In this document: one piece after another, positions 33,952 to 64,000 of the stretch
How the letters are laid out: the number at the start of each line of letters is the position of its first letter
Position numbering within the stretch: position 1 is the first letter of the stretch
From: an uncultured Candidatus Saccharibacteria bacterium
GTDB lineage: Bacteria; Patescibacteriota; Minisyncoccia; Minisyncoccales; RBG-13-42-11
DNA length: 64,000 nt
NCBI GenBank assembly: GCA_964481125.1
Contig: CAYZSL010000002.1
Coordinates: 24,597-88,596, forward strand
Direction: 5' to 3'
Notes under the pieces: generated by a model
The model's database searches: none
The model's input: only the letters and a program-made list of their open reading frames with translations
Told to the model about the DNA's origin: nothing
Translations under genes and position numbers: made by a program

Positions 33952-34773
33952 TTAAAGTTTCTCGATAACTTTTTCAAAAGAATCCAAACGCTCTTTCAAT
34001 TTGGAATGCAACTGATGTTCCTTAAGCTCCTTTATCTGTTTTTTGATTGAATCGATAAAACTGTAAAATGACTCTTCTCGTCTTTCTGGGTTATCTAAAT
34101 TGTTTTTTATTTCTTCTTCTGACATAGAAAGATAAAAAATCGGCATATGTTCAATTTTTCCCTTCTTTAACTCCATCTTGCCTGCTTTTTTCTCGAAAAA
34201 AATGCCGTATGCAAGATCAGCTCCTTTTCCCTCAAGATTTTTTTTAGAAACTTCTTCCTTTTTCTCTTCAAATATTTCTCCGCTATCGGCTCCAACTTCA
34301 TCAAAAGCACAAACTATATTTCCAGTTTCCCTTTCTAAAATGATGTTGTCTACGTTGTTCTTTAAATCATCGTATTCTGAGGTTCTGGTTACGATAAAAT
34401 CTTTTCCTAATTTTTCTTGGAAGATAGAGGTTTTTAACATTTCAAAAATCTCGCCCATAGGTGTTTCTTTTAATACCTCTTTTTTTGGAAACGCCCAAGA
34501 CGACTTACTTCCACTCATGGCTTTAGCTTTAAAATACGCCTTCAAATCCTTAACATATTTTCGACATGATTCAATAAAGTCTTTGCTATAAACGCCTCCA
34601 AATTCGTTAATATTAATCCTGAGTCTTTCATCGACCGGAACTCCCTCTTCCCTTAATTCCAAAAACCTTTCCCTAATATCTCCTTTTAATATTTCCAGAC
34701 CATCTTTTTTAACTTCCTTTTGTTCCGGCTGCACCTCCCCTTGTCTTATAGGCTGTGGTTCTCTTTCCAACAT
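33952..34773 (-). CDS. hypothetical protein (charged, K/E-rich)
   Basis: Start trimmed to MLEREPQ so that it does not overlap the ileS stop; no recognisable domain. Confidence 0.45.
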   Translation of the reverse strand: MLEREPQPIRQGEVQPEQKEVKKDGLEILKGDIRERFLELREEGVPVDERLRININEFGGVYSKDFIESCRKYVKDLKAYFKAKAMSGSKSSWAFPKKEVLKETPMGEIFEMLKTSIFQEKLGKDFIVTRTSEYDDLKNNVDNIILERETGNIVCAFDEVGADSGEIFEEKKEEVSKKNLEGKGADLAYGIFFEKKAGKMELKKGKIEHMPIFYLSMSEEEIKNNLDNPERREESFYSFIDSIKKQIKELKEHQLHSKLKERLDSFEKVIEKL

Positions 34774-34774
34774 A

Positions 34775-37648
34775 TTATATTTTTTTAATTGCCAGTAATA
34801 TATTCTGCCCGCCAATTGCAACTTCTTTTTCCATATCAAAACCTTCTTGTGCCTCTCCTGAAATCAAATCTTTTACCCTAGCTTCCTTTAAAATAAAATC
34901 CCTATTTTTAGCTAAAATATTACCCAGTTCGCCACTGCCAGAATAGCTTACCAAGATTTCATCTTTTGGTTTTAAGCCAGCTTTCTTTCTCATTTCCTGG
35001 ATATTCCTGATCAATTCTCTGACTGTTCCTTCTTCTTTCAGTTCTGCGCTAATCTCAATATCTAACTCCACTTCTTTCTTTATTTTATTATCAAAAACCA
35101 CTTCTTTTACATTTACCTCCTCTTTTATCAAATCCAGCAATTCTGAATCAAATTTTAGTTTCACATTTTTCACTTTTAAACTCTGTAAAGGCTGCCTTGT
35201 TTTTATTCCAGATGCTGATCTTTCTGCCAAAGCCAAGGCAACTATTTCTCTGGTTTTCTGCATTTTCTCTTCAAGCTCCTTATTAATAGATTTTTTATTA
35301 ACTCCCGGCCATTCGATTAAATGAACTGATTCTGGCATTCCGTCTTTCTTGAACTTCTGGTAGTTTTCTTCGGCAAAAAACGGCATTATCGGAGCAATAA
35401 GATTCAATAAATTAACAATAACGCAGTAAAGGGTTTGAGAAGCTTCTCTTTTCTCTTCAGGATTATCGGGTTTTTGGAAACGCTTTCTCGATCTGCGAAT
35501 ATACCATAAAGACAAATCGTTTATAAAGAAATCTTCAATCGCCAAAGCAGCTGACATTACATTATAATCATCCAAATCCTTTGTTATTTTAGCTATTAAA
35601 CTGTTTAACCGGGAAAAAATCCAAAGATCTAAACAATTCTTACTTTCAACAATATTTGTTTTATCAGGATATTCTTCCGGAGAAACGTAGGTAGTAAAGA
35701 ATTCAATGGAATTGTGCAAAGTCAATAATTTCCTTTTTGTTTCTTCGGCAAGCTTGTAGCCGAAATTAAGATTATAAGCCGGATTTTGCTTGGCATACAG
35801 CCATCTCATGGGGTCTGCTCCTATTTTCTCAACCGCCTCGTCAAACCAAATGGCATTACCCTTGGATTTGTGCATCTCTTCACCCTTTTCATCACGAACC
35901 AACGCGTATCCGAAAATCGTCCTTGTCGGATTTTTCTTTTCCAAAACCATGCTCATAACGATCAAAGAATAGAACCAGTTTTTGAATTGGCCAGGGAAAG
36001 ACTCGCAAATCAAATCAGCTGGAAACCATTTTTTCCAATAATTCTTGTCAGTGGAATATCCCATGGTGGAAAAAGAAACAATTCCAGCATCCAGCCACGG
36101 ACTGCCGACGTCAGGAATGCGGGAAATTAATTTGCCACATCGCGAACATTTGATTTTAACTTTATCCACCCATGGCCGATGAGGAGAATTTCCCTCAAAA
36201 TCCTGCCAGCCTTCAACCGCTCTTTTTTTCAATTCTTCTTTTGAACCGATAACTTCAAAATGTCCGCAGGAACATTCAAAAATCGGCAAAGCCAATCCCC
36301 AATATCTTTTTTTGGAAATCAGCCAGTCCTGCATATTCTTTAACCAATCCAGCTCCCTTTCCAGACCGAAAGAAGGCAGCCATTTTATCTTTTTAACTAT
36401 ATTCATCAGCGGCTTTCTCAGTTTCTCCATGGAAATATACCATTCATCAACCAAACGGAATATCAAATCTTCCTTGCAACGCCAACAGGTCGGATACCGG
36501 TGTTTGTAATCTTCAATCCTGTAAACAACATTCTTATTTCTTAAATTATCAAAAACCATTTCATTAACTTCTGCTGCCAGATTTCCGGTTAAAAATCCGA
36601 AGCCTTCTTTATATCTGCTTTCATCATCCAAAGGATCGATAACAGGAAGATTGAATTTCTTGCCGAGCTGAAAATCCTCTTGGCCGCAACCAGGAGCAAT
36701 ATGGACGATACCTGTTCCTTCTTCCTCTGAAACTTCGTCCCAAAATATAACTTTATGTTTGAAATCGCCTAAAGTCTCTTTAACTGCCGGCAGTTCATCA
36801 AACATTCCCCCATATTCCAACCCTTCCAAATCTTTTCCCGAAAACTCTCTGATTATTTCTAAATTACCGAAAATTCCTGCTTTATCTTTTTGCAAAATGA
36901 GAATCTCATTGTCTTCGCTTTTAATTTCGGTATAAATCAATTTCGGATTTACAGCCACCACCACATTAGCTGGCAACGTCCATGGAGTAGTTGTCCAAAC
37001 CAAAAGATATGTCTTTTCCCGACCGATAACAGGCAGCTTAACGAAAACTGATTTATGGATGATTTCCTGATATTCTTCCGTCAGAATCTCATGCTGGGAA
37101 ATGGCTGTGCCGCAGCGAATGCACCAGGGCACAACGTCTCTTCCCTTATAAAGCAGTCCGTCTTTCCAACATTTCTTTAAAAAATTCCAAATAGCGTAGT
37201 TGTTCTCGTCAGACATGGTGTAATATGAATTGTCCCAATCCATCCACTGGCCCAATCTAACAGACTGTTCTGTTTGGATTTTGGAATATTTTCTGACCCT
37301 TTCTTTGCACTTATTGACGAAATTAGCTATGCCGTATTTTTCAATATCTTTTTTGTTTTTGAAGCCCAACTCTTTTTCCACCTCTACTTCAACCCAAAGG
37401 CCCTGGCAGTCAAAGCCGTTCTGAAACCTCTGGTCAAACCCTTGGAAAGCTTTATATCTTTGAAAAACGTCCTTGTAAGTCCTTCCCCAGGCATGATGGA
37501 CTCCCATGGGATTATTGGCAGTTATCGGACCGTCCAAAAAAGACCAGCGTTTTTTATCCTGGTTTTTCTCTCTCAGTTTTTCAAAAATCCTATTCTCCTG
37601 CCAAAACTTTAATATCTTTTGCTCTATTTGAGGAAAATTTAATTCCAT
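34775..37648 (-). CDS. ileS: isoleucyl-tRNA synthetase
   Basis: 957 aa. HIGH-type PMGVHHAWG, KMSKS variant EMHKSKGN, editing domain, and C-terminal Zn-binding Cys pairs. Confidence 0.9.
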   Translation of the reverse strand: MELNFPQIEQKILKFWQENRIFEKLREKNQDKKRWSFLDGPITANNPMGVHHAWGRTYKDVFQRYKAFQGFDQRFQNGFDCQGLWVEVEVEKELGFKNKKDIEKYGIANFVNKCKERVRKYSKIQTEQSVRLGQWMDWDNSYYTMSDENNYAIWNFLKKCWKDGLLYKGRDVVPWCIRCGTAISQHEILTEEYQEIIHKSVFVKLPVIGREKTYLLVWTTTPWTLPANVVVAVNPKLIYTEIKSEDNEILILQKDKAGIFGNLEIIREFSGKDLEGLEYGGMFDELPAVKETLGDFKHKVIFWDEVSEEEGTGIVHIAPGCGQEDFQLGKKFNLPVIDPLDDESRYKEGFGFLTGNLAAEVNEMVFDNLRNKNVVYRIEDYKHRYPTCWRCKEDLIFRLVDEWYISMEKLRKPLMNIVKKIKWLPSFGLERELDWLKNMQDWLISKKRYWGLALPIFECSCGHFEVIGSKEELKKRAVEGWQDFEGNSPHRPWVDKVKIKCSRCGKLISRIPDVGSPWLDAGIVSFSTMGYSTDKNYWKKWFPADLICESFPGQFKNWFYSLIVMSMVLEKKNPTRTIFGYALVRDEKGEEMHKSKGNAIWFDEAVEKIGADPMRWLYAKQNPAYNLNFGYKLAEETKRKLLTLHNSIEFFTTYVSPEEYPDKTNIVESKNCLDLWIFSRLNSLIAKITKDLDDYNVMSAALAIEDFFINDLSLWYIRRSRKRFQKPDNPEEKREASQTLYCVIVNLLNLIAPIMPFFAEENYQKFKKDGMPESVHLIEWPGVNKKSINKELEEKMQKTREIVALALAERSASGIKTRQPLQSLKVKNVKLKFDSELLDLIKEEVNVKEVVFDNKIKKEVELDIEISAELKEEGTVRELIRNIQEMRKKAGLKPKDEILVSYSGSGELGNILAKNRDFILKEARVKDLISGEAQEGFDMEKEVAIGGQNILLAIKKI

Positions 37649-51790: not shown

Positions 51791-52071
51791 AAGCTATTCT
51801 TATTTTAACACAACTCTTTAAATTAAAAAATCCCGCTATAAGCCGGATTCTTTAATAAGGGGGAATAGCTCTTGACGAACTTGATTGTTCACTTAAGTCT
51901 AGTTGGACATTGTTAGGCAGCTGCTGTATCTCCTTCATCAAAAACTATCTGTCCTTTTGGGCAAAAAACCCGCACCCCCTCACTTTTAAGTTTAATTGAG
52001 TGATATTTTTTGTCAAGATTTTGTTGATTCTAACCTCTATAAAGAAAAAGTGGCAAGGCTCTCAGCTTTAT

Positions 52072-52578
52072 CTAAATTCCAAATTTCCGGATAGCCTCAT
52101 TCATATCTTCTGCTAAAGCCATCCTTGTCATTTTTTGAATATCAGAGGGAATTGGTTTATAACTTGCTGGCATTCTAAACTTTCTGTAGTTTTGGAGTTT
52201 TTTAAACTTATCTCGTGGAAGTTCTGCGATATAAAGAAAACCATTTTTTTTATCATTAATTTTAGACCTAATTTCTTTAGCTGATAACTTTTCAATTTTA
52301 TTGATATCTATAAATGAGGATCTTTCCCTAAAATAATCAGGGTATTCTAAGTTTCTATTTATCCATTCAGATTCTTTGACTTCAATTGTCAAAAACTTTT
52401 GACAAGCACTGATAGAACTCATTAAAATAAAAAAATAAAAAAAATCCACTTCTAACTCTAAGGGGAATGTATTTCCAGCTAATTTATATTTTCTTCTTGT
52501 CTTTTTAATACGTTTTTCAAAAGACTTTTTGTCGAAATATACATTTCGTGTCTTGATATACTCTTCGAGAGCAATCAT
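52072..52578 (-). CDS. unknown protein, candidate toxin/effector partner of the Panacea-domain protein (PD-(D/E)xK-like D..EVK motif)
   Basis: 168 aa, very AT-rich. Lies 12 bp downstream of the Panacea-domain gene in the same orientation. Contains ELEVD(47)...IEVKE(66). Confidence 0.5.
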   Translation of the reverse strand: MIALEEYIKTRNVYFDKKSFEKRIKKTRRKYKLAGNTFPLELEVDFFYFFILMSSISACQKFLTIEVKESEWINRNLEYPDYFRERSSFIDINKIEKLSAKEIRSKINDKKNGFLYIAELPRDKFKKLQNYRKFRMPASYKPIPSDIQKMTRMALAEDMNEAIRKFGI

Positions 52579-52590
52579 AGTTTTAAAGCT

Positions 52591-53067
52591 CTATCGCTTA
52601 CCAAACTTTAATCTCAATCCTATACCCTTTGAATTATTTGTTTTTGCTCCCAATGCGATCATCGGTTTTGTTCTATAAGCTATTTCGGTAAGGGCTCTTG
52701 CGCCATATCCTTTTACTGATTCTAATAATTCATCTATTATCATCAATTCTTTGCTGTTTATTTTATCGCTATTATAATCAGAAGATTCACTAGGAGAATA
52801 TACTACAAATTCTTTCCCTGTTGTTATCGTATAGTCGCTCTTTGGAATAATTATTTTTTTATTGATTAAATCTTCAATATACAAATAAATTTTGCTATCA
52901 AAAGGACCATAATAATATCTTCTATATTTAAAATTTGATACTTGTTTTTTATATCTCTCTACGCTTATTAAGTCTACCAAATAAGCAAGCTTCATCAGGC
53001 TTGTTATTGAACATTCTGGATTTTTCTTAAGTAGAGAAAAAATCAGTTGCTTGGTTTTTTCATTCAT
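52591..53067 (-). CDS. Panacea-domain (DUF4065, SocA-like) protein, candidate antitoxin
   Basis: 158 aa. SLMKLAYLVDL...YRRYYYGPFDSKIY matches the KLxKLlYxaD...W/YxYGPv..ly signature of DUF4065. Confidence 0.55.
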   Translation of the reverse strand: MNEKTKQLIFSLLKKNPECSITSLMKLAYLVDLISVERYKKQVSNFKYRRYYYGPFDSKIYLYIEDLINKKIIIPKSDYTITTGKEFVVYSPSESSDYNSDKINSKELMIIDELLESVKGYGARALTEIAYRTKPMIALGAKTNNSKGIGLRLKFGKR

Positions 53068-53153
53068 ATTGTAATTATATTATTATAGCAGCTCTGTTAA
53101 AAGAATACAAGTAAAATAAAAAACTGCTCAAAAATGAATATTTTACTTTAATA

Positions 53154-53225
53154 TGCCCCCAGCAGGAATCGAACCTGCATTTTGAGTTCCGGAAACTCAT
53201 GTTTTATCCATTAAACTACAGGGGC
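53154..53225 (-). tRNA. tRNA-Pro (anticodon CGG), CCA not encoded
   Basis: Reverse complement: acceptor GCCCCTG/TGGGGGC, anticodon stem GAGTT/AACTC with loop TCCGGAA, T-arm GCAGG-TTCGATT-CCTGC. Confidence 0.8.
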
Positions 53226-53938
53226 TTTTTAGCAATTAAATAAATATTACCCTCTTTAGATTTTTTGTTTCTAAAACCGCCGATTTCCTTTAACTTTAAA
53301 TCAGACCTTTCAGCTAGTTCTTTTAATTCGTTCTTTGTAAAAAAGTGGACATAACGTAGGAGAACGTTTTTCCAAGGAATGAAAAAATCTTTAAAATCGA
53401 GTTTTGATTTTCCTAAAATTTTTAAGATAAAACATTTTAAAAAACCTGAAAATCTTTTGTACCGACCGGTTAGAATCATATTAATCGGATTCAAGTTCCA
53501 AACAGTTAAAATTAGCATTCCTTTGGGCTTCATGATTCTTTTTATCTCTTTTAAAAATTTGAGGCGCAATTCTTTAGATGGAATATGATGCAATACGGCA
53601 ATACATAAAACTCTATCGAAAAGATTATCCGGAAATGGTAAATTAAAAGCAGACGAAACTAGAAAATTACCGTTAGGATACTTGTTTTTCGCAATTTCAA
53701 TTAATCTTTCTGAAAAATCTACTCCGGTATAATCAACTTTTTTGTCGTTAAATATTTCAAAAAATCTTCCATTTCCACAACCTAGATCTAAAACTCTATC
53801 TCCGACAAAAATGTATCGCAAGAACCATTCTTTCTCTTTAGGGGAAACGAAATTTCTAGTCTTTGACCAGTCCTCAGCAATTAGATTATAATCTTCCTTA
53901 GTTTTACCTAATAAATATTTAGCAAAATCTTTATCCAT
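53216..53938 (-). CDS. class I SAM-dependent methyltransferase
   Basis: 240 aa. Motif I VLDLGCGNGRF. The stop codon sits inside the 5' end of tRNA-Pro (10-nt overlap). Confidence 0.75.
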   Translation of the reverse strand: MDKDFAKYLLGKTKEDYNLIAEDWSKTRNFVSPKEKEWFLRYIFVGDRVLDLGCGNGRFFEIFNDKKVDYTGVDFSERLIEIAKNKYPNGNFLVSSAFNLPFPDNLFDRVLCIAVLHHIPSKELRLKFLKEIKRIMKPKGMLILTVWNLNPINMILTGRYKRFSGFLKCFILKILGKSKLDFKDFFIPWKNVLLRYVHFFTKNELKELAERSDLKLKEIGGFRNKKSKEGNIYLIAKKPL

Positions 53939-55469
53939 GAATCATTTAGAATTAATAGTCAGAGAAATTATTAAAAATCGGGTAAAAGACCGTGATACTT
54001 TAGCTAAAATCAATAGAAAAGCTGCTAAAAACCACAAAATCCCTTGTCCAGATAACATTTCTCTATTAAAAACTTACCACGAATTAACCAAAAAGAGAAA
54101 AATAAAAAAATCTCCACTTTTGGAGCTTTTGTTGATTACAAGGCCGGTTCGTTCGCTATCCGGTATAGTAAATATTTCAGTTTTAACAAAGCCATATCCT
54201 TGTCCTGGCAAATGCCTTTATTGCCCACAAGAAGCAAATATACCGAAAAGCTATGTTTCAGGGGAACCAGCCGTAGAAAGAGCTAAAAAACTGAATTACG
54301 ACCCATACTTACAAACAAAATTAAGAATTGAGATGTTGGAATACGAAGGACATCCCACTGACAAGATTGAACTGAGGATTGTCGGTGGCACCTGGTCTTT
54401 CTATCCTAAAAAATACCAGGAATGGTTCGTTAAAAGATGTTTTGACGCCTGTAACAAAAGAAAAAACAAAACCTTAAAAGAAGCCCAAAAAATCAATGAA
54501 AAAGCAAAACATAGAATAGTCGGATTATCCATTGAAACAAGGCCTGATTTCATAAACGAAAAAGAAATAAAGCAGTTAAGGACCTTAGGAACAACAATGG
54601 TTGAACTGGGAGTGCAAACTATTTACGACAACATTCTCGACATAAACTTAAGAGGCCACAAAGTAAAAGAAACAATTTCAGCGACAAAGCTTTTAAAAGA
54701 TGCTGGCTTTAAGGTTCTTTATCAGATAATGCCCAATTTATTAGGATCCAACGTAAAAAAAGATGAAGCAATGTTCAAAGAATTGTTCAAAAACCAAGAT
54801 TTCCAACCGGATCTCTTAAAAATATATCCTTGCGCCCTTTTAAAAGAAGCTCCTCTATATAAATTATGGAAAAAGAAAAAATATAAGCCTTATACAGAAA
54901 AACAACTAATAAATCTAATTAAAAGCATAAAAAAGAAAATCCCTTCATATATAAGAATTCAAAGAATAAGCAGGGATATTCCTTCTTCGCGCATTATCGC
55001 TGGTCCGGCCAAAATCTCTAATATCCGCCAGATTCTGAAAAACCAAAACATACACTGTAAATGCATAAGATGCAGAGAAGTAAGAGATAACTACAAACAG
55101 AAAGAAAAGCTGTATTTATTCAGAAAAGAATACAAAGCTTCCAAAGGTAAAGAAATATTCTTAAGCTTTGAAAATAAAAACAGAACAAAGCTTTACAGTT
55201 TGCTCCGTTTAAGGAAAACTTCAGAAAACCAAGCAATTATAAGAGAAATACACACTTTCGGCCAACAGCTGCCAATAAGCGAACGCCAAAATGCCATATC
55301 CCCCCAGCACCAGGGACTGGGCAAGAAACTAATAAAAGAAGCTGAAAGAATAACAAAAAAAGAATTCAAGTTAAAAAAAATCAGCGTTATTGCCGCTGTC
55401 GGAGCGAGAAACTATTTCAGAAAATCAGGATATAAGCTGGAAGACACTTATATGGTTAAGATTCTTTAA
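53937..55469 (+). CDS. elp3: Elp3-family radical SAM / GNAT acetyltransferase (tRNA U34 modification-like)
   Basis: 510 aa. Radical-SAM CPGKCLYCP, then a C-terminal GNAT domain (QHQGLGKKLIKEAE). Confidence 0.8.
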   Translation: MNHLELIVREIIKNRVKDRDTLAKINRKAAKNHKIPCPDNISLLKTYHELTKKRKIKKSPLLELLLITRPVRSLSGIVNISVLTKPYPCPGKCLYCPQEANIPKSYVSGEPAVERAKKLNYDPYLQTKLRIEMLEYEGHPTDKIELRIVGGTWSFYPKKYQEWFVKRCFDACNKRKNKTLKEAQKINEKAKHRIVGLSIETRPDFINEKEIKQLRTLGTTMVELGVQTIYDNILDINLRGHKVKETISATKLLKDAGFKVLYQIMPNLLGSNVKKDEAMFKELFKNQDFQPDLLKIYPCALLKEAPLYKLWKKKKYKPYTEKQLINLIKSIKKKIPSYIRIQRISRDIPSSRIIAGPAKISNIRQILKNQNIHCKCIRCREVRDNYKQKEKLYLFRKEYKASKGKEIFLSFENKNRTKLYSLLRLRKTSENQAIIREIHTFGQQLPISERQNAISPQHQGLGKKLIKEAERITKKEFKLKKISVIAAVGARNYFRKSGYKLEDTYMVKIL

Positions 55470-55712: not shown

Positions 55713-57059
55713 TTATTTCTTCATCCTGTTTAAACGTTCAAACTCTTCCCTGACTATCTGCCTGTCGTCCCAGGCTATCTTCTCGCCTTTGGCCACGCAC
55801 ATCCACGGTTCGCAGCCTTTGCCGGTAATTACTACTGTATCACCTTCTTTAGCTAATTTCAAAGATTTCTTAATAGCTTCCCTACGATCTAAAATCTTGA
55901 AAACTTTTGATTTCTGCTTTTTGGATTTTGAACCGGCAATCCCGGAAAAAACTTCCTCCAATATTTTCTTCGGATCTTCATCATAAGGGTCCTCATCAGC
56001 CAGAATAATTTCGTCGCAGTACTTGGCAGCAATTTCCCCCATTTTCGGCCTCTTCCATTTATCCCTGCCTCCGCCAGCCGAACCAAGCAAACAGATTAAT
56101 CTTTTTCCTTTAAATGACTGGTAAACTTTTTCCAAAGCATCTGGAGTATGGGCATAGTCAACAATCACTTTAAAGGGCTCGTTAATAACAATTTCCATCC
56201 TGCCTGCCATCTTTTCAATCTTTTCCAAAGTTGATTTGCAGGAGGGCAAATTGATTCCTTCTGACAACCCCACGCAAATTGCTGCCAAAGCATTATAAAC
56301 ATTAAATCCTCCCAATAATTTCAAATTAATACCAACGTCTTTAATTTCTTTTAAAGTCTTTGATTTTTTATCGATAAGCCTTATCTCCTGCTTTTTGTTT
56401 TTAATCCCATAAAGATATTTTTGTTCAGCAGGAAACTGTAGAAAATAATCTGCATTTTCATCATCCGAATTAATAATATGTATTTTTTTAACGGCTTTAA
56501 AGAGCTGCCCCTTGGCTTTTCGATAATTCTCAAAGCTGCCGTGCCTTTCAATATGCTCTGGCGCCAAATTAGTAAAAATCGCTGTCTTAAAATCAATAAA
56601 CTTATGGCGATGCTGTAGAATTCCTTCTGAGGTTACTTCCAATATCGCGTATTTACAGCCCTCATCCAACGCCTCTCTTAAAAACTTCTGGATCTGAAAA
56701 CGACCAGGCATTGTCATTTTCAGCATATTGGGCCTTTCATGGATGTTTATCTTAAACCTTATAGAAGAAAGGGAAGCGGTTTTATAGCCTGATTCCTGGA
56801 AAATACGATGGCAGAAATCAACGACCGTTGATTTACCTTTAGTGCCAGTAACCCCGATAATCGTCATCTTTTTACCAGGAAATCGGTATAAAAAAGCACC
56901 CAAAAACGCAAGTATAAAATGATACCAGTCAATTAAAAAAGAAGGTGTAATTTTTTTGATCAATTCCTTCATAGTTCTCTTCTCTTCATATTCTAGACAA
57001 ATTATCTCCAAAATAAAAGAGGGTGAGAATTGCTCCTCACCCTCTATGAAAAAGCCCAA
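55713..57059 (-). CDS. Mur ligase family protein (MurE/MurF-like)
   Basis: GVTGTKGKST P-loop and DYAHTPDAL motif. An alternative start at 56972 (MKELIKK) would remove an acidic 29-aa N-terminal extension; an N-terminal TM-like segment follows. Confidence 0.7.
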   Translation of the reverse strand: MGFFIEGEEQFSPSFILEIICLEYEEKRTMKELIKKITPSFLIDWYHFILAFLGAFLYRFPGKKMTIIGVTGTKGKSTVVDFCHRIFQESGYKTASLSSIRFKINIHERPNMLKMTMPGRFQIQKFLREALDEGCKYAILEVTSEGILQHRHKFIDFKTAIFTNLAPEHIERHGSFENYRKAKGQLFKAVKKIHIINSDDENADYFLQFPAEQKYLYGIKNKKQEIRLIDKKSKTLKEIKDVGINLKLLGGFNVYNALAAICVGLSEGINLPSCKSTLEKIEKMAGRMEIVINEPFKVIVDYAHTPDALEKVYQSFKGKRLICLLGSAGGGRDKWKRPKMGEIAAKYCDEIILADEDPYDEDPKKILEEVFSGIAGSKSKKQKSKVFKILDRREAIKKSLKLAKEGDTVVITGKGCEPWMCVAKGEKIAWDDRQIVREEFERLNRMKK

Positions 57060-57088
57060 CTACCGGAGGGAAAACCTTGTTAGGCATT

Positions 57089-57520
57089 TTATGAAGCCGG
57101 CTTGGCCTCAATGTGCCTTAATGGCTGGTTGACTTCATGCGCGCGGTGAGACGTAGCGACCTCTTCTTGGTCAGTGCCATCGAAGACATCAAATTTGTCC
57201 CTTATATGCCTAAAGAATGGCACCAATGGCGCTAAGAAAGCTGTCAGCAGAGCTAACACAGTAAGGAATATGAGAAATGCCGCAAAAAACGCTCCGAATG
57301 TGTTAACCAGACTGGGTAATGCTGGTTCCAGGATCCCGCCGTTGTATATTGGAGAAAGAACATCGCCACTAGGGCTGCTCAGCATGGCCGGCATTACGAC
57401 TGTTGCCTTACCAACGTCGATTGAGCTGTCAGCCTTAGCAGGTGTCGGTGTCAGGAGGACGGAGCAAGCTACTAGCAAAACTGCCAGTACCCCGAATATA
57501 GTCGGAAATCTTTCTCTCAT
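57089..57520 (-). CDS. GC-rich small lipoprotein-like membrane protein (hypothetical)
   Basis: 143 aa. SD AGGGAGG; signal peptide with LVAC lipobox-like site; one additional TM helix. At least 50% GC. Confidence 0.5.
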   Translation of the reverse strand: MRERFPTIFGVLAVLLVACSVLLTPTPAKADSSIDVGKATVVMPAMLSSPSGDVLSPIYNGGILEPALPSLVNTFGAFFAAFLIFLTVLALLTAFLAPLVPFFRHIRDKFDVFDGTDQEEVATSHRAHEVNQPLRHIEAKPAS

Positions 57521-57662
57521 TATGCCTCCCTTAACTTTGATAACGTTCCTCCGGTAAAATTAGGCGTTTCCACCTAAGATTAGGTTATTTTATATGGTCC
57601 CAAAATGCCTGTCAATGTGAATAACTTGAAAACAAATTAAATTTGAGATAAAAAGAATAGAC

Positions 57663-59600
57663 ATGTTCAAAATTGTCTCAAAATTCAAACCGACCGGCGA
57701 CCAACCGGAAGCGATAAAGAAACTGGTTAAAAACTTAAAAACTGGCATAAAACACCAGGTGCTTTTGGGCGTTACCGGCTCTGGTAAAACCTTTACCATG
57801 GCAAAAGCAATTGAAAAGATCCAGAAGCCGGTATTAATCATTTCTCACAACAAAACATTGGCTGCCCAACTATATCAAGAATTCAAAGAATTCTTTCCGA
57901 AAAACGCTGTCCATTACTTTGTTTCGTATTACGACTATTACCAGCCAGAAGCCTATATCCCTCAAACAGATACATATATTGAAAAAGACGCCAAAATTAA
58001 CGAAGAGATAGACAGACTAAGACATGCGGCCGTCCAAGATCTGTTATCAAGAAAAGACATCATTATTATTGCTTCGGTCTCCTGTATTTACAACATCGGT
58101 TCACCAGAAGACTACCAGCAGGTTTCCTTAGAAATAAAAACAGGCCAAAAATTAAAAAGAAAAGATTTGCTTTCCTGTTTAACCTCTCTCCAATATCAAA
58201 GGAATGATATTGATTTTAAACCTGGCACTTTCAGAATCAGAGGCAGCATAATCGAAATCTATTCTGTAACCGGAGAAGAAATAATACAAATTGAGCTTTC
58301 GGGCGACAGAATCGAAAGTATAAAAAGCAAGAACAGCATTATTGATTCTAAATACAAAAACATTAATTCTTTCAAACTATTTCCTGCTCACTTTTGGGTT
58401 ACTCCTCAAGAAAAGCTGAATATCGCCATTGAGAATATAAGATTGGAACTGCAAGAACAATTGAAAAAACTGAAAAAACAGAAAAAATTAGTTGAATGGC
58501 AAAAGCTAAACCAAAGAACGAATTATGATTTGGAAATGATGAAAGAAACCGGCTTTTGCCACGGCATTGAAAACTATTCCAGGCATTTGGAGTTCAGAAA
58601 ACCAGGGTCCCCTCCTTACGCCTTAATTAATTATTTCCCGAAAGACTTCTTGGTTTTTATCGACGAATCCCACATAACTATCTCGCAGTTAAAAGCCATG
58701 TCTGTCCAAGATAAAATAAGAAAAAAAACATTGATTGATTACGGATTCAGACTGCCTTCGGCCATCGATAATCGTCCGTTAAAATTCGATGAATTCGAAA
58801 AAAGCATTAACCGGACAATCTATGTTTCAGCTACGCCAGGAGAATATGAGAATTTAAAGATAAAGAACGACAAATCAAAACTGCTGGTTGAACAGCTGGT
58901 CAGGCCGACAGGACTATTAGAACCCTCAATTGAAATAAAACCGACCAAAAATCAAGTAAAAGACTTAATCAAAGAAATAAAACAAAGAATAGCAAAAAAA
59001 CAAAGAGTTTTGGTTTTAACCTTAACGAAAAGACTGGCTGAAGCTGTTTCCGATTACTTGACTGAAGAAGGAATTAAATCTAAATGGCTCCATTCGGAAA
59101 TCAAAACCATGGAAAGGCCTCAGATTCTTAAAAGCCTTAGAGAGGGGAAATATGACGTTCTGGTCGGCATCAATCTTTTAAGAGAAGGATTGGATTTACC
59201 GGAAGTCTCCTTAATCGCCATTTTAGACGCTGACAAAGAAGGCTTTTTAAGGTCAGAAACCACGTTAATCCAGACAATGGGAAGGGCTAGCCGCCATACT
59301 GAGGGCCATGTCATTCTTTACGCTGATAAAATTACCGGCTCTATGGCCAGAGCCATTAAAGAAATCGAAAGAAGGAGAAAAATCCAAGAAAAATACAATA
59401 AAAAGAACAAAATAATCCCAAAAGCCATTGTTAAAGCGATCAGAGACTGGCCATTTAACAAAAAGGAGGAAGTATCTACAGAATTTTGGCCGATTAGAGA
59501 CATAAAACTACTGGAAAAAGAAATGAAAACAGCTGCCAATAACTTAGATTTTGAAAAAGCAGCTGAAATTAGAGATTTAATCAAAAAACTCAAGAAATGA
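57663..59600 (+). CDS. uvrB: excinuclease ABC subunit B
   Basis: 645 aa. Walker A GVTGSGKT, beta-hairpin region and UVR domain at the C-terminus. Confidence 0.9.
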   Translation: MFKIVSKFKPTGDQPEAIKKLVKNLKTGIKHQVLLGVTGSGKTFTMAKAIEKIQKPVLIISHNKTLAAQLYQEFKEFFPKNAVHYFVSYYDYYQPEAYIPQTDTYIEKDAKINEEIDRLRHAAVQDLLSRKDIIIIASVSCIYNIGSPEDYQQVSLEIKTGQKLKRKDLLSCLTSLQYQRNDIDFKPGTFRIRGSIIEIYSVTGEEIIQIELSGDRIESIKSKNSIIDSKYKNINSFKLFPAHFWVTPQEKLNIAIENIRLELQEQLKKLKKQKKLVEWQKLNQRTNYDLEMMKETGFCHGIENYSRHLEFRKPGSPPYALINYFPKDFLVFIDESHITISQLKAMSVQDKIRKKTLIDYGFRLPSAIDNRPLKFDEFEKSINRTIYVSATPGEYENLKIKNDKSKLLVEQLVRPTGLLEPSIEIKPTKNQVKDLIKEIKQRIAKKQRVLVLTLTKRLAEAVSDYLTEEGIKSKWLHSEIKTMERPQILKSLREGKYDVLVGINLLREGLDLPEVSLIAILDADKEGFLRSETTLIQTMGRASRHTEGHVILYADKITGSMARAIKEIERRRKIQEKYNKKNKIIPKAIVKAIRDWPFNKKEEVSTEFWPIRDIKLLEKEMKTAANNLDFEKAAEIRDLIKKLKK

Positions 59601-59634
59601 AAATCCCCCACTAAAGGGGGAGTTTCAGTTAAGA

Positions 59635-61575
59635 TTATAATTTTTTATTCATAAAGTCTTTGAACCTCTGCCAGAAAGATTTGGGTTTTTTCTCTGGAGT
59701 TTCTTGCATGGCTTTCCACGCTTCTGCCATTCCACTTGGTACATGAATTTTTTCCCACGCTTCTTTATTTGCTTCTTCTGTTATTTCTTGTGCTTCTGAA
59801 TCCAAGGGAAAGGCTTCTTTCCATTTTTTAAGCTTTTCTTCTTCGGGCGATAGTTCAGCTTCAAGTTGGCTTTCTGTTCCGCCCAGTTTCTTTTTTAACT
59901 GCTCTTTTAAAAACCTAAAAAATGGAGTTTCAACGGAAAATCCCGATTGGGTTGGAAACTCTTTTTTATCTTTCTTTTTGTCGGTCAATTCACCATTTTC
60001 AGCCACAAACTTTCCCGTAGCGTTATCTATAAGCCAAGCTTTAGTGTGTAAATAATTATATTCTACTTTCCAGCCAAGCTTTCTTAAATAAGCGTCTTTG
60101 AGTACTTCGTAGTTGGGCTTTTCTCCGACAACATTTTTAATGCTTTCTTCAAATTCTTCAAACTGGCTTTTGGGCTTATCCTTCATGGCCCCTTTCAATG
60201 CTTCAAACTCGTCTCTTATCTTCTTCAAATCACTTAATCTTTGTGTCTTTTCCTCTTCAATATTAGAAGTTGGTATTTTGCCTTTCTTTTCGGCTTCCAA
60301 CAATGATCTTACTTCATTTTCCCATCTTGTAGGCATTTTTCTACGCATATTATCAATCTGTTCCTTTGTTACTCCTCTACTTGTATATTTTTCAATCATC
60401 ATGGCTTCGATTCTCTTGCGGTCTTCTTCGGCCACAGAATCTTTTTTAAATCCTTCAAATGAGGTTTCTTTTGCCCTACCCTTCCTTTTTCTTTCAACTT
60501 TCCCAGGCGCTTCTTTTTTTAGCATCTCAGCTTTTTGTCGTTTATCTTCCATCACCTTTATTGCAGCTCTTTCCATGTCAATCTTTGTTTGACGCTTCTC
60601 TACTTCTGATTTATTACCAATAGATGATGCTTTATCACGTAATCTTTCCCAGGCGTCAATATTTTTATTGGCCCTTTCTATCCTAATGTTATAAAAGTCA
60701 ATATCTTCTATGTCTGGAGGGTTTAACTCAACTTTTGGCTCAACCTTCTCGTCGGTGGAAGCATTTTCTGGTTTTGGAGGTTCTTTTGGTTCGCTTTCTA
60801 TATTATTATTTTTCATATTTTTATTTTTTTGATTATTTTTATTATCAATTGCCTCAAATTTTTTCCAGGCTTCCATAACGCTCATTTTATCAATATCTTC
60901 TTGAGGTATGTTATTTTTTAATAGAATGTTAAGTAATCTCCCATCCTTTACCGAGGGTTTTGCACCCCAATTATTAATTTTATCTATTTGCTTTCTTACC
61001 CATTCAAGCCCTTCTTCGCCCATCATATTTTCTATGTTTTTAATTGTCTTCTGAAGACTTTCTACTCTTGCCTCAGCTCTTTTCTTGAATTTACTGGGTG
61101 TGTCTTTAGAAGATATTATTTCATGCAAACGCTTAATTGCTTTTTTATTTAAATAATCAATTTTCTGTTCATTGGGTAATTCTACAATTCCATCTATCCA
61201 ATATTTAGTTGTAACTTCTTTAGGATCAAAGGCGACTATAGCTTTTTTCTCTTTAATTTTGTCTTTTCGTTTATCAGTAGAAAAATCATTCTTCTTTTCA
61301 GATTTTTCAATAGAATTAGATTCACCGATAGAACTTTTTTCCATGTAGCCATTATTTTCGTATTCTACTTTTTCTTCAAGCGGAACAATAATTTCCATTC
61401 CGTCTTTTTCCATCACTATTTTCTCGCCTTTTGACTCAGCTGATTCTCCTTGATCCCCTAAGGGAAATCCACTAGATAATTCGTCATCTGGTATTATTCT
61501 TTTGCCTTCTTTTTTTTTGCTTCCAATTGGATCTCCGTCTCTTGGTTCTTTCCAATTTCCGTGTCGTTCTCCCAT
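59635..61575 (-). CDS. large K/E-rich predicted coiled-coil protein (hypothetical)
   Basis: 646 aa. No TM helix, strongly charged, low complexity. Immediately downstream of the HerA/VirD4-like ATPase on the same strand. Confidence 0.5.
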   Translation of the reverse strand: MGERHGNWKEPRDGDPIGSKKKEGKRIIPDDELSSGFPLGDQGESAESKGEKIVMEKDGMEIIVPLEEKVEYENNGYMEKSSIGESNSIEKSEKKNDFSTDKRKDKIKEKKAIVAFDPKEVTTKYWIDGIVELPNEQKIDYLNKKAIKRLHEIISSKDTPSKFKKRAEARVESLQKTIKNIENMMGEEGLEWVRKQIDKINNWGAKPSVKDGRLLNILLKNNIPQEDIDKMSVMEAWKKFEAIDNKNNQKNKNMKNNNIESEPKEPPKPENASTDEKVEPKVELNPPDIEDIDFYNIRIERANKNIDAWERLRDKASSIGNKSEVEKRQTKIDMERAAIKVMEDKRQKAEMLKKEAPGKVERKRKGRAKETSFEGFKKDSVAEEDRKRIEAMMIEKYTSRGVTKEQIDNMRRKMPTRWENEVRSLLEAEKKGKIPTSNIEEEKTQRLSDLKKIRDEFEALKGAMKDKPKSQFEEFEESIKNVVGEKPNYEVLKDAYLRKLGWKVEYNYLHTKAWLIDNATGKFVAENGELTDKKKDKKEFPTQSGFSVETPFFRFLKEQLKKKLGGTESQLEAELSPEEEKLKKWKEAFPLDSEAQEITEEANKEAWEKIHVPSGMAEAWKAMQETPEKKPKSFWQRFKDFMNKKL

Positions 61576-61638
61576 ACTTGTTAAAAATTAAGGTTATTAA
61601 TTTCTTTTATTGTATAACAAAAATGTGCTTTTGTCAAC

Positions 61639-63978
61639 TTAGAAATATCCTTTCTGCATTCTCTTTAAAAGTTCATTTTCTACCACAGATAAATCTCTTC
61701 CATATTTTACTCGGGATAACTCTTTTATCAATTCTGCCACTTTCTCATTCGCTTGGCTTGGAGGAAAAGTGACGATATTGAAAGGATTGGAAGTTTCTCC
61801 GTTAATTAATAGCCTAATAGCGGCATTACGGTTATCAATATTAACCAGATCATTCTCATCAAAAACCGGCTCAAACTGGGTGACTAAGTATTTGGCGTCT
61901 TCCGGCCCCACCCTGAAGCAGACAATGGAGCCGACATTGCCGAAAATCGCTTTTCTAGTGTCCTCGTCAATCTGGCCGATAAACTGATGGGCCAAAACCA
62001 TGGCCAGCTTGTATTTTCTTGCTTCAGCCAAAGCAGAAGCAATGCTGCCGGTAGTGACGTTGTGAAACTCGTCTATATACAGATAAAAAGGCTTTCTCTT
62101 CTCTTCTTTCAAGTCAGCTCTGGACATGGCGGCAATAAGTATTTTGCCGACGATAATCATACCCAATAAGTACGAATTAAGGTCTCCTAATTTTCCTTTG
62201 GAAAGATTAACTATCAGAATCTTGCCCTGGTCCATAATTTCTCTGAAGTTTATTGATGATTGCTGCTGGGAAATAATAGGACGAACAAGGTCATTGGCCG
62301 TAAAAACGTTCATTTTACTGGTAATGTAGGGCACCATATTCGCCAAGGCTGCCTCGCCCCCTGCTTTTTCCGCCTCCTGCTCCCAGAAATTCTTAACCAC
62401 TATGTTCTTACAGCGGGACAGTTTGTACTTTCTGAAGTTGGTATCCGCCAAAACCCTTGGCACCTCGATTAAAGTGGTGCCTGAATCCGGATCTTCCATA
62501 ACCAATAAAAGAGCATTTCTCATATACTGCTCGAATATAGGACCGCCGAATCCCTGGGCTTTCATATTATATAACTTTTCAAAAATCTCCAGAATTTCAT
62601 TAACGACGAACGTTTTTGATTCCGGGTAATTCCGGTCGTATTCAAGTATGTTAAGACCGAGAGGCTTGGCAACATCTCCCGGATTGAAATAAATTACGTC
62701 TTCTGCCCTGGAAGCAGGAATCAGTCCCAAAACGCGCTCAGCCAAATCACCATGAGGGTCAATCAAAGCTACTCCCTGGCCGCTTTCAATATCCTGTCTA
62801 AGCATTTCCTGAATTAATACGGACTTACCCGTACCTGTCTGACCGACAATGTAAAAATGCCTTTGCCTGTCTTCGTCTGTGGTCCTTACTATTCTTTCCT
62901 CTGCCCGGAAAGCGCTCTTCCCGATATTTATTCCTTGCTCTGGAAGGTTGACCGGAGGCGCCACCTGCTTCATTTTAATCCATTTGATATTCGGGGTATG
63001 AAGGCTGGAAGCAGGCAAATGAAAAATCGTCGCCAATTCTCCAGAAGAAAAAACCATGGCTTCGCTCTCATTGAAAAGCCTGAAAGAAAATTTATAAAAA
63101 AGCTTTTTTAATTCTCTTTTAGCTGCGTGCTTGAATTTAAACTGATTTAAAAGAGGGGCGTTGAATTGTTCAAAAGAACTTTCTATTTCTCCGAGCATGC
63201 TTTTGGCCCTTATCTCGTTTTCGGCTGACACTAATATCCTTAAATTGACGTCGAATAAAGATTGGGAAGCTTTTGTGGAAATTGAAGCAATGGCTTCCTG
63301 CTGGGCCGGACCTATTTCTGTTCTATTAAAAGCGTCTTCCGGTTTTTTATCGTTTTTCGGAAAAAAAGTTTTACCCATGTCAGCGAAAAACCCAGATTTT
63401 TTAGCCTCAGACATAGCTGTATCGAAGTTTTTTCCTGATTGCAAAGCTTGTACCGCTTCAAAAGCCACCTTTTTAATTGATTTTTTACTCGACCTGAAAA
63501 GAATCTGAACAGCTGCTCCTTCCCCTTCTTTCTTTAATTTGGTAAGGGTGCTGGTTATCGAAGACAAAGGATCAACCTGAAAGTCTTTGTAGCTTTTAAT
63601 CGGCAAAATGGCTAAACTGCTCAAAGAAGCTTTGCTGCCGACAGAAGCGCCCTCCGGATTAAAAATATTGTAATCTTCAATCGACTGGACCTGGGCTTTC
63701 GGCCAAAAACCGAGAATCTGCTTTTCCATTATTTGGGAAAACTTGCGCGGGCAGGCAACATAAAAGAATATTTCTTCTTTGGCGTGATGAACGGCAATTT
63801 CAAAAACGAAATATGGATTGCCGAACAAAAAACGGGAGAATGCATTTTCCTCCCGAATGCCTGCCAAAGACGAAAAAAACTGTTCGCCGAGTTTCAAATA
63901 ATCCTGTAGGGGCATTTCTTTTTCTTTATCTACCTTCCCTTCATGGGGCAGAGTAATCATAAATAAAGAAAGATTCAT
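61639..63978 (-). CDS. FtsK/HerA-superfamily P-loop ATPase (VirD4/TraG-coupling-protein-like or HerA-like)
   Basis: 779 aa. Walker A IVGQTGTGKS, followed by LIDPHGD (the DPxGE box of HerA/TrwB), Walker B LYIDEFHN, and a VLAHQFIGQI Q-rich box. No N-terminal TM helices. Confidence 0.6.
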   Translation of the reverse strand: MNLSLFMITLPHEGKVDKEKEMPLQDYLKLGEQFFSSLAGIREENAFSRFLFGNPYFVFEIAVHHAKEEIFFYVACPRKFSQIMEKQILGFWPKAQVQSIEDYNIFNPEGASVGSKASLSSLAILPIKSYKDFQVDPLSSITSTLTKLKKEGEGAAVQILFRSSKKSIKKVAFEAVQALQSGKNFDTAMSEAKKSGFFADMGKTFFPKNDKKPEDAFNRTEIGPAQQEAIASISTKASQSLFDVNLRILVSAENEIRAKSMLGEIESSFEQFNAPLLNQFKFKHAAKRELKKLFYKFSFRLFNESEAMVFSSGELATIFHLPASSLHTPNIKWIKMKQVAPPVNLPEQGINIGKSAFRAEERIVRTTDEDRQRHFYIVGQTGTGKSVLIQEMLRQDIESGQGVALIDPHGDLAERVLGLIPASRAEDVIYFNPGDVAKPLGLNILEYDRNYPESKTFVVNEILEIFEKLYNMKAQGFGGPIFEQYMRNALLLVMEDPDSGTTLIEVPRVLADTNFRKYKLSRCKNIVVKNFWEQEAEKAGGEAALANMVPYITSKMNVFTANDLVRPIISQQQSSINFREIMDQGKILIVNLSKGKLGDLNSYLLGMIIVGKILIAAMSRADLKEEKRKPFYLYIDEFHNVTTGSIASALAEARKYKLAMVLAHQFIGQIDEDTRKAIFGNVGSIVCFRVGPEDAKYLVTQFEPVFDENDLVNIDNRNAAIRLLINGETSNPFNIVTFPPSQANEKVAELIKELSRVKYGRDLSVVENELLKRMQKGYF

Positions 63979-64000
63979 ACCCTGGTTAAGGAAAAATCTT

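Follow-up and report, generated by a model that had tools for sequence, protein, structure and literature searches.

Patescibacteria rely on other bacteria, and in one genetically tractable species of the phylum the type IV secretion system (T4SS) is essential for epibiotic growth. Among the described genes close to the one treated here are the homologues of VirD4-type type IV coupling proteins (T4CPs) of this phylum, of which 5,713 were found in 2,918 out of 3,035 Patescibacteria genomes, with only 148 of them near virB4 (Quinonero-Coronel et al. 2025, PMC12102498). The T4SS of the Patescibacteria was derived from monoderm conjugation machinery in the same study, whose authors wrote that exaptation 'cannot be ruled out' (PMC12102498). 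In the main body of the Cell 2023 Southlakia paper, VirD4 or T4CP is not mentioned. What a coupling-type ATPase does in these bacteria is puzzling, as about 96% of Patescibacteria genomes have one although it is not linked to the secretion genes and has been reported to be dispensable. Here we present an analysis of an ATPase gene of this kind, together with the gene for a 646-aa lysine- and glutamate-rich (K/E-rich) protein that lies 63 nt away in the same orientation. Both are located at the edge of a stretch of 64,000 nt of contig CAYZSL010000002.1 (assembly GCA_964481125.1, forward-strand positions 24,597 to 88,596), referred to below as the window.

As judged from its sequence, the ATPase is a T4CP-type member of the FtsK-HerA superfamily and appears to belong to a Patescibacteria-wide family, DUF8128, which is already known. 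The Pfam model TrwB_AAD_bind matched the C-terminal half of the protein with 45.2 bits against a gathering threshold of 20.5, as did T4SS-DNA_transf with 27.1 bits against 20.1; DUF87 was likewise above its threshold. TraG-D_C (20.1 bits) remained narrowly under its cut-off of 22, and HerA_C was also below threshold. The three Pfam models, a match to TrwB and homologues in T4CP position on plasmids bear out the initial annotation of this DNA, which had placed the protein in the HerA/FtsK/VirD4 superfamily and had proposed a T4SS-like coupling protein. No NCBIfam equivalog came near its cut-off: the T4CP model TIGR03743 reached 41 bits (cut-off 366), the VirB4 model TIGR00929 18.3 bits (cut-off 643) and the HerA model NF040819 24.6 bits (cut-off 970). 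Among the PADLOC models, mad8 matched over the motor domain (1.5e-17), and the HerA models gave values of 7e-8 and weaker.

The protein database holds at least 7,771 homologues of the ATPase. The best 120 of these share 64-97% of their residues with the window protein and measure about 820 aa; almost all come from Patescibacteria, and nearly all carry DUF8128 together with TrwB_AAD_bind. Identities of 64-70% extend across many lineages within these 120 homologues, a degree of conservation that appears unusually strong for proteins of the candidate phyla radiation (CPR). The DUF8128 model (PF26449) is precomputed N-terminally on the listed homologues, including the 97%-identical protein P0001; the local Pfam scan of the ATPase gave no PF26449 match, the model being probably missing from that copy, and no literature was found under 'DUF8128'.

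The ATPase open reading frame (ORF) within the window (61639..63978, minus strand) comprises 779 aa and is truncated. Its reading frame is still open at base 64000, and the 21 bases preceding the listed ATG translate into RFFLNQG, identical to residues 36-42 of P0001. The truncated ORF itself had no exact match, so that P0001, with a length of 821 aa, was used instead. This homologue is 42 residues longer than the window ORF, and these residues include a transmembrane helix; its first 35 residues contain a strongly hydrophobic helix (KD19 = 3.07), which is followed by GRKRER. An N-terminal hydrophobic helix is present in 55 of 60 homologues. The true start of the gene, the transmembrane helix and about 126 nt are predicted to fall outside the window edge. 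The initial annotation had described the protein as having no N-terminal transmembrane anchor, an impression that arose because the window edge truncates the ORF; the anchor, a T4CP trait, consists of one helix in P0001 and most of its homologues, as compared with two in the classical description of T4CPs, and is located outside the window. The Walker A, DPHGD, Walker B and HQFxGQ motifs named in that annotation were all recovered where it had placed them, as was the co-orientation of the two ORFs, and in the alignment of 60 homologues the four motifs are invariant or nearly so.

The best match of the ATPase in the PDB by sequence is TrwB (E 2.7e-7 with the single sequence, 8e-10 with a profile), followed by HerA and DotL. 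VirB4 was not among the matches of the PDB profile search, and there was no Pfam match to CagE_TrbE_VirB. In the alignment with TrwB the Walker A/DP.GD region is aligned, and the Walker B region more weakly. The AlphaFold2 (AF2) model of the full ATPase has a predicted local distance difference test score (pLDDT) of 73. In a Foldseek comparison of this model, TrwK/VirB4 was the best match (E 1.9e-15, both domains aligned), TrwB the second (E about 1e-10, template-modelling (TM) score 0.54-0.59 normalised to TrwB) and HerA the next, with a Foldseek probability of 1.00 for TrwB, VirB4 and HerA alike. Regarding the N-terminal domain alone (pLDDT 76.7, predicted TM-score (pTM) 0.78), the top 14 Foldseek matches in the PDB were all TrwK/VirB4 (E 3.8e-7 to 1.3e-3, TMq 0.38-0.43), and the next matches were unrelated. 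The same domain yielded no PDB or Pfam match by sequence, so its likeness to VirB4 is one of fold only; it is probably VirB4-like, given one independent structural match of moderate TM-score. At low confidence (pLDDT <50), the modelled motor domain has a helical insertion at residues ~496-611, which may or may not correspond to the all-alpha domain inserted in the nucleotide-binding domain of T4CPs.

An FtsK was considered for the ATPase and rejected. It is not indicated by FtsK_SpoIIIE (PF01580), which scored 13.9 bits against a cut-off of 24, nor by the single transmembrane helix, as opposed to a multi-helix N-terminus. VirB4 identity by sequence is contradicted by a model score far under the cut-off and by the lack of virB3, virB6 and virB8 neighbours in the nearest genome and among the commonest neighbouring Pfam families.

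A tblastn search against plasmids returned 557 records that match the ATPase, of which 45 span 80% or more of its length, with matches from Bacillus, Streptomyces-group actinomycetes, haloarchaea and Sulfolobus. On the 27.5-kb B. subtilis plasmid NZ_CP154917.1, the homologue (WP_345805471.1, 885 aa, labelled 'DUF87') is followed by a Replic_Relax relaxase gene, conjugal transfer genes and the gene of an 847-aa ATP-binding protein. On the Embleya plasmid NZ_CP108778.1, the homologue WP_331738717.1 is encoded among a PrgI-family gene and genes for an ATP-binding protein, Replic_Relax and NlpC/P60. The profile of the CPR ATPase did not match the second (VirB4-type) ATPase of either plasmid. A plasmid-type ancestry of the window ATPase fits the monoderm origin of the Patescibacteria T4SS (PMC12102498).

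Full-length relatives of the ATPase are also carried by Bacillus phages (20-25% identity over 85-90% in the best matches), namely gp33 of Bacillus phage 0105phi7-2 (L051) and gp156 of Bacillus phage G. One relative was observed in a phage-plasmid, where it adjoins ParA-type and RepB-type genes.

The nearest genome, GCA_016782605.1, is syntenic with the window at about 90% DNA identity. Its ATPase gene is flanked on one side by holA, rpsT and a gene for a 136-aa protein, and on the other side by the K/E-rich gene, uvrB, a Mur ligase gene and a radical-SAM gene, with fpg also nearby. The large ORFs elsewhere in the window include topA, leuS, metG, ileS, argS, glmS and polX. No relaxase or mating-pair-formation gene was found among the large ORFs of the window or in the 22 kb covered around the ATPase gene of the nearest genome. 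When 78 neighbouring genes from about 35 related loci were ranked by Pfam family, the 25 commonest families included none of a T4SS. A nuclease neighbour of the ATPase was found neither in the neighbourhood of the nearest genome nor among the commonest Pfam families of the 78 neighbours. Because of its housekeeping neighbours, its conservation and the absence of T4SS families nearby, the ATPase gene is considered a chromosomal core gene that is vertically inherited and lies outside mobile elements and defence islands. An integrated conjugative element was rejected on account of the uniform GC content, the housekeeping genes and the DNA-level synteny of 77-93% with related genomes. Neither of the two findings that would have refuted the initial annotation by its own account was made: the profile scores do not indicate a housekeeping FtsK, and the upstream genes do not form a standard conjugative element.

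The gene truly conserved beside the ATPase appears to be that of a small helical protein encoded directly upstream, past the window edge. In most of 38 loci, an ORF of 130-280 aa on the same strand ends within about 20 nt of the ATPase start. In the clade of the window this protein is of type A (~130-166 aa, helical, motif …LISLVFEKGL..AISVA..LNNPAILDEFHD.LVD.YY; for example L005:9580-9990 and L014:189-587), a small family with no annotation of value, and in the window's own genome its gene would sit just past base 64000. Distant clades have at the same position a type B protein with the motif …IPRVNKYFLEQESKIKTD…, and no homology between the two types was detectable (hhalign probability 0.7%). 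The initial annotation had suggested that the rest of the system may lie beyond base 64000; this holds for the transmembrane anchor and the small conserved gene, whereas VirB4 and VirB6 are not there according to the synteny of the nearest genome.

In two related genomes, genes of toxin-antitoxin type are inserted between the type A gene and the ATPase gene (L016:5355-5854, a HicA toxin with an upstream small ORF; L018:4359-4628, a ParE toxin).

Downstream of the ATPase, 18 loci of a distant clade (Kerfeldbacteria/ABY1-like and WWE3) encode a conserved protein of ~212-232 aa, family Y, sometimes after insertions (motif …GQNMVG.DGK.Y.VP.NYASKSKLVEGD…; loci including L028:9288-9983, L031:8418-9056 and L041:2989-3873). 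Family Y is usually followed by dnaX, which accounts for 16 of the 78 neighbours. A linkage to clamp-loader genes is therefore seen in both clades, with holA upstream in the clade of the window and dnaX downstream in the distant clade.

The K/E-rich protein appears to be a fast-evolving, lineage-restricted and modular neighbour and not a conserved partner of the ATPase, because its identity between the window and the nearest genome is 39%, its family comprises 12 representatives, its gene has a promoter of its own and the family member P0152 is encoded apart from the ATPase. The first of these values compares with identities of 90-97% for the flanking proteins. On the DNA level, the hypervariable part of the gene (see Table 1, which lists the features of the locus) has no similarity to the orthologous position in the genomes L005 (83-93% identical elsewhere) or L009 (77-82%); in blastn, similarity returns over the last ~560 nt. 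A module of ~155 aa of the window protein is absent from L005 and L009 and present in the family members P0147, P0148, P0152 and P0153. The C-terminal tail is conserved in the closest family members and missing in half of the family; it would suit a role in membrane targeting and one as a signal for secretion alike.

Since a word-indexed search with the whole K/E-rich protein gave 2 matches only, probably because of its low-complexity words, its C-terminal 192 aa were used as the query of an exhaustive representative search, which found the 12 representatives among 1.84 billion proteins. Among these, P0152 is encoded next to a Mur ligase gene and is preceded by a homologue of the window ORF 33952..34839, not by the ATPase. 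The pairing of the ATPase and the K/E-rich protein in a two-gene system, as put forward in the initial annotation, is not upheld in view of the tiny family, the low identity and the position of P0152.

The ORF 33952..34839 (minus strand, 295 aa) is itself, with 28.8% K+E, the second most K/E-rich in the window, has no Pfam match and has its homologue in L047 directly upstream of the K/E-rich family member. Genes of charged hypothetical proteins may thus change places around this family.

The charged nature of the protein was correctly predicted: K+E amount to 30.7% of its residues, as compared with a median of 18.9%, which is the highest value among window ORFs of at least 200 aa, and 41% of the residues are charged, with no hydrophobic segment. 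Repeats, on the other hand, had been expected and are lacking, as self-BLAST revealed no internal repeat and TRF trivial AT-rich micro-repeats only. No family match was obtained in Pfam, NCBIfam or PADLOC, and the protein has no relaxase domain. The K/E-rich ORFs downstream of the ATPase in L011, L014, L015 and L041 have no detectable homology to the family of the 646-aa protein, and families X and Y are not members of it either. Most of the K/E-rich ORFs in this downstream position also show no detectable homology among themselves.

The promoter begins where the ATPase gene ends, immediately past its stop codon, and precedes the K/E-rich gene; it is kept in three genomes: in the window, in L005 (TTGACA-17-TATAAT) and in L009 (TTGACA-17-TATAAA). 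There is no terminator between the ATPase and K/E-rich genes, so read-through is possible. Four independent metagenomic contigs with the identical 646-aa protein all end within the ATPase gene, in its 3' part, three of them (L001, L003, L004) ~690-707 nt and one (L002) ~420 nt upstream of the K/E-rich gene. An assembler would be expected to break where a conserved gene meets a strain-variable one, and the breaks are consistent with coexisting strains that share the ATPase and differ downstream.

Table 1. Features of the ATPase and K/E-rich gene locus (window coordinates; residues numbered within the respective window ORF)
Feature	Position (nt)	Strand	Residues	Remarks
G+C-rich hairpin separating the K/E-rich gene from convergent uvrB	59604..59621	(.)		terminator-like on both strands
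K/E-rich hypothetical protein gene, 646 aa	59635..61575	(-)		no family assignment, no transmembrane segment
Basic, aromatic, amphipathic C-terminal tail of K/E-rich protein, KKPKSFWQRFKDFMNKKL	59638..59691	(-)		hydrophobic moment 0.62-0.67
Constant ~100-aa C-terminal domain of K/E-rich protein	59881..60168	(-)	~470-565	…LGWKV.Y…KAWL.D…ETPF..FL…
Hypervariable part of K/E-rich gene	60194..61505	(-)		blastn gaps
Sigma-70-like promoter TTGACA-17-TACAAT	61609..61637	(-)		11/12 consensus positions
ATPase gene, 3' ~95% (predicted ~821-aa membrane-anchored T4CP-type protein, DUF8128 family)	61639..64000	(-)
RecA-like motor domain of ATPase	61639..62928	(-)		with helical insertion and all four motifs
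HQFIGQ	61972-61989	(-)	664-669
Walker B, YIDEFH	62062-62079	(-)	634-639
DPHGD	62746-62760	(-)	407-411	begins 21 residues past the end of Walker A
Walker A, GQTGTGKS	62821-62844	(-)	379-386
N-terminal cytoplasmic domain of ATPase (DUF8128 in homologues)	62929..63978	(-)	1-~350

The explanation we favour, with a probability somewhat above even, is that a membrane-anchored chromosomal DUF8128 ATPase, kin to the coupling proteins of plasmids, feeds a T4SS that is encoded elsewhere, and that the adjacency of the K/E-rich gene is local synteny. The protein, with one predicted transmembrane helix, a cytoplasmic domain that probably resembles the N-terminal domain of VirB4 and a RecA-like motor of TrwB/VirD4 type, would form a membrane-bound oligomeric ring, probably hexameric, at the cytoplasmic face of the membrane. 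Driven by NTP hydrolysis, it would act as receptor and translocase of a polymer substrate, which it would hand over to the Patescibacteria T4SS encoded elsewhere in the genome, and it would probably work with the small helical protein encoded directly upstream. Among the individual roles that may be considered for the ATPase, coupling to a distal Patescibacteria T4SS appears to be the single most likely one. The novel DNA-translocation system that the initial annotation had also considered is not needed to explain the locus.

Several points weigh against this explanation. No T4SS gene was seen in the window or in any locus examined, and T4SS coupling is proposed from homology. Confidence in the AF2 models is moderate (pLDDT 73-77), with values below 50 in the helical insertion. 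Of the nine closest loci whose sequence extends far enough downstream, seven have a K/E-rich ORF directly downstream of the ATPase, as compared with a background of 3.8%, so that some positional association with charged proteins may exist. The t4cp homologue of S. epibionticum was reported to be non-essential, whereas the T4SS genes are essential, and the genomes with a T4CP homologue outnumber those with VirB4 (2,918 versus 2,417; PMC12102498). Finally, the T4CP set of that study is identified with the DUF8128 family by inference only.

A less probable alternative, which nevertheless deserves serious consideration, is that the ATPase family has acquired, by exaptation, a housekeeping function at the membrane that does not involve the T4SS, for example DNA translocation in replication, segregation or uptake, together with the small upstream protein. 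The dispensability of t4cp in S. epibionticum and the excess of genomes with T4CP over those with VirB4 favour such a function, and so do the near-universal distribution, high conservation and synteny of this core gene and its recurrent linkage to the clamp-loader genes holA and dnaX. That linkage, however, could be plain core-genome synteny, redundancy could hide essentiality, given that 5,713 T4CP homologues in 2,918 genomes amount to about two in each, and the closest characterisable relatives are all located within conjugation clusters. CPR bacteria may, moreover, have an FtsK of their own, as its mention in TM7x papers suggests.

It is unlikely that the K/E-rich protein is a secreted substrate or effector dedicated to the ATPase as its coupling protein, a pairing of coupling protein and substrate that the initial annotation had considered. 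On plasmids, the gene directly downstream of the T4CP is that of the relaxase, which is the protein substrate of the T4CP, and the K/E-rich gene occupies the same position; its frequent counterparts in the closest loci, the extreme divergence and module shuffling between near-identical genomes, which resemble effector or host-interaction proteins, and the conserved basic amphipathic C-terminal tail would all suit a secreted protein. Positively charged C-terminal signals are known from VirD4 substrates. The tail is, however, missing in half of the family and looks equally like a membrane-targeting helix of MinD/FtsA type, and the protein has no relaxase or other domain. A family of 12 representatives also contrasts with the huge family of the ATPase, no homology to the remaining K/E-rich ORFs downstream of the ATPase was detectable, the gene of P0152 lies apart from that of the ATPase, and a conserved promoter of its own precedes the K/E-rich gene. 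Somewhat less likely still is the more far-reaching idea of a third branch of T4SS ATPases, combining a VirB4-like N-terminus with a VirD4-like motor, that was fixed as a core machine of the Patescibacteria with clade-specific small partners and for which the K/E-rich protein would be an exported, host-directed effector. A HerA-type anti-phage defence module, also proposed in the initial annotation, can be dismissed as very improbable: the DUF87 match above threshold and the PADLOC matches to mad8 over the motor domain and, weakly, to HerA point in this direction, but there is no nuclease, Sir2 or other effector partner and no other mad gene, the neighbourhood is of housekeeping type and syntenic, the N-terminal domain is VirB4-like by fold and not a HAS-barrel, and a near-universal conserved core gene does not resemble the patchy genes of defence systems.

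Two other loci in the window differ between related genomes. A stretch of low GC content (52030-53173; GC 0.29 in the block 52001-54000) adjoins a tRNA-Arg(CCG) gene at 53154-53225 and holds two ORFs; one of them, 52591..53067, encodes a SocA/Panacea antitoxin domain. No DNA match to the stretch exists at the equivalent position of the otherwise syntenic genome L005, where a methyltransferase-family gene is called instead, and the stretch resembles a small islet specific to the strain. The ORF 57089..57520 (minus strand, 143 aa, no Pfam match), located between the genes of uvrB and the Mur ligase, has a signal-like hydrophobic N-terminal segment and a second hydrophobic stretch. The surrounding stretch 57023-57664 exceeds its counterpart in L005 by about 510 nt, and L048 has a different gene there, encoding 135 aa.

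For the question of what an orphan coupling-type ATPase does in these bacteria, the most useful results are the corrected architecture of the protein, its plasmid ancestry and the identity of its truly conserved neighbour. The locus sharpens this question by a transmembrane anchor combined with a probably VirB4-like N-terminal domain, by a likely descent from the coupling proteins of monoderm plasmids, by a conserved neighbour that appears to be the small upstream protein and not the large charged one, and by the linkage to clamp-loader genes; it yields concrete candidates for interaction and knockout experiments.

A comparison with the known systems places the ATPase as follows. The orphan T4CPs of the Patescibacteria resemble it in phylum, in VirD4-type similarity to hidden Markov models, in near-universal occurrence and in being rarely near virB4, and were described without domain architecture, partner genes or function (PMC12102498). 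TrwB of plasmid R388 (PDB 1E9R/1GKI) is the structural archetype of the T4CPs and the best sequence match in the PDB. Its N-terminal membrane domain comprises two helices, and it lacks a large N-terminal domain in the cytoplasm, unlike the family of the window ATPase with its single transmembrane helix and N-terminal domain of ~350 aa. TrwK/VirB4 of R388 (PDB 7O43, 8RTD) shares with the ATPase the combination of an N-terminal domain and a C-terminal ATPase domain and a length of about 800 aa, but the window ATPase lacks sequence-level similarity to VirB4 and has no virB3, virB6 or virB8 nearby. The T4CPs of monoderm plasmids are homologous to it over their full length (22-27% identity over 81-89%, E 5e-34 to 8e-54) and carry the same Pfam signature. 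The profile of the CPR ATPase matched the proteins in T4CP position on the two plasmids described above with 156 and 229 bits, and the profile of the N-terminal domain matched the Bacillus protein with 53 bits. These plasmid genes adjoin those of a Replic_Relax relaxase, a VirB4-type ATPase and other transfer proteins, whereas the window gene is chromosomal, lies among housekeeping genes with no relaxase or mating-pair-formation genes nearby and is 64-97% identical among the best 120 listed CPR homologues. Because the plasmid homologues match over the full length, N-terminal domain included, the window gene appears to be a chromosomal relative of a coupling-protein type of monoderm plasmids that already had the extra N-terminal domain.

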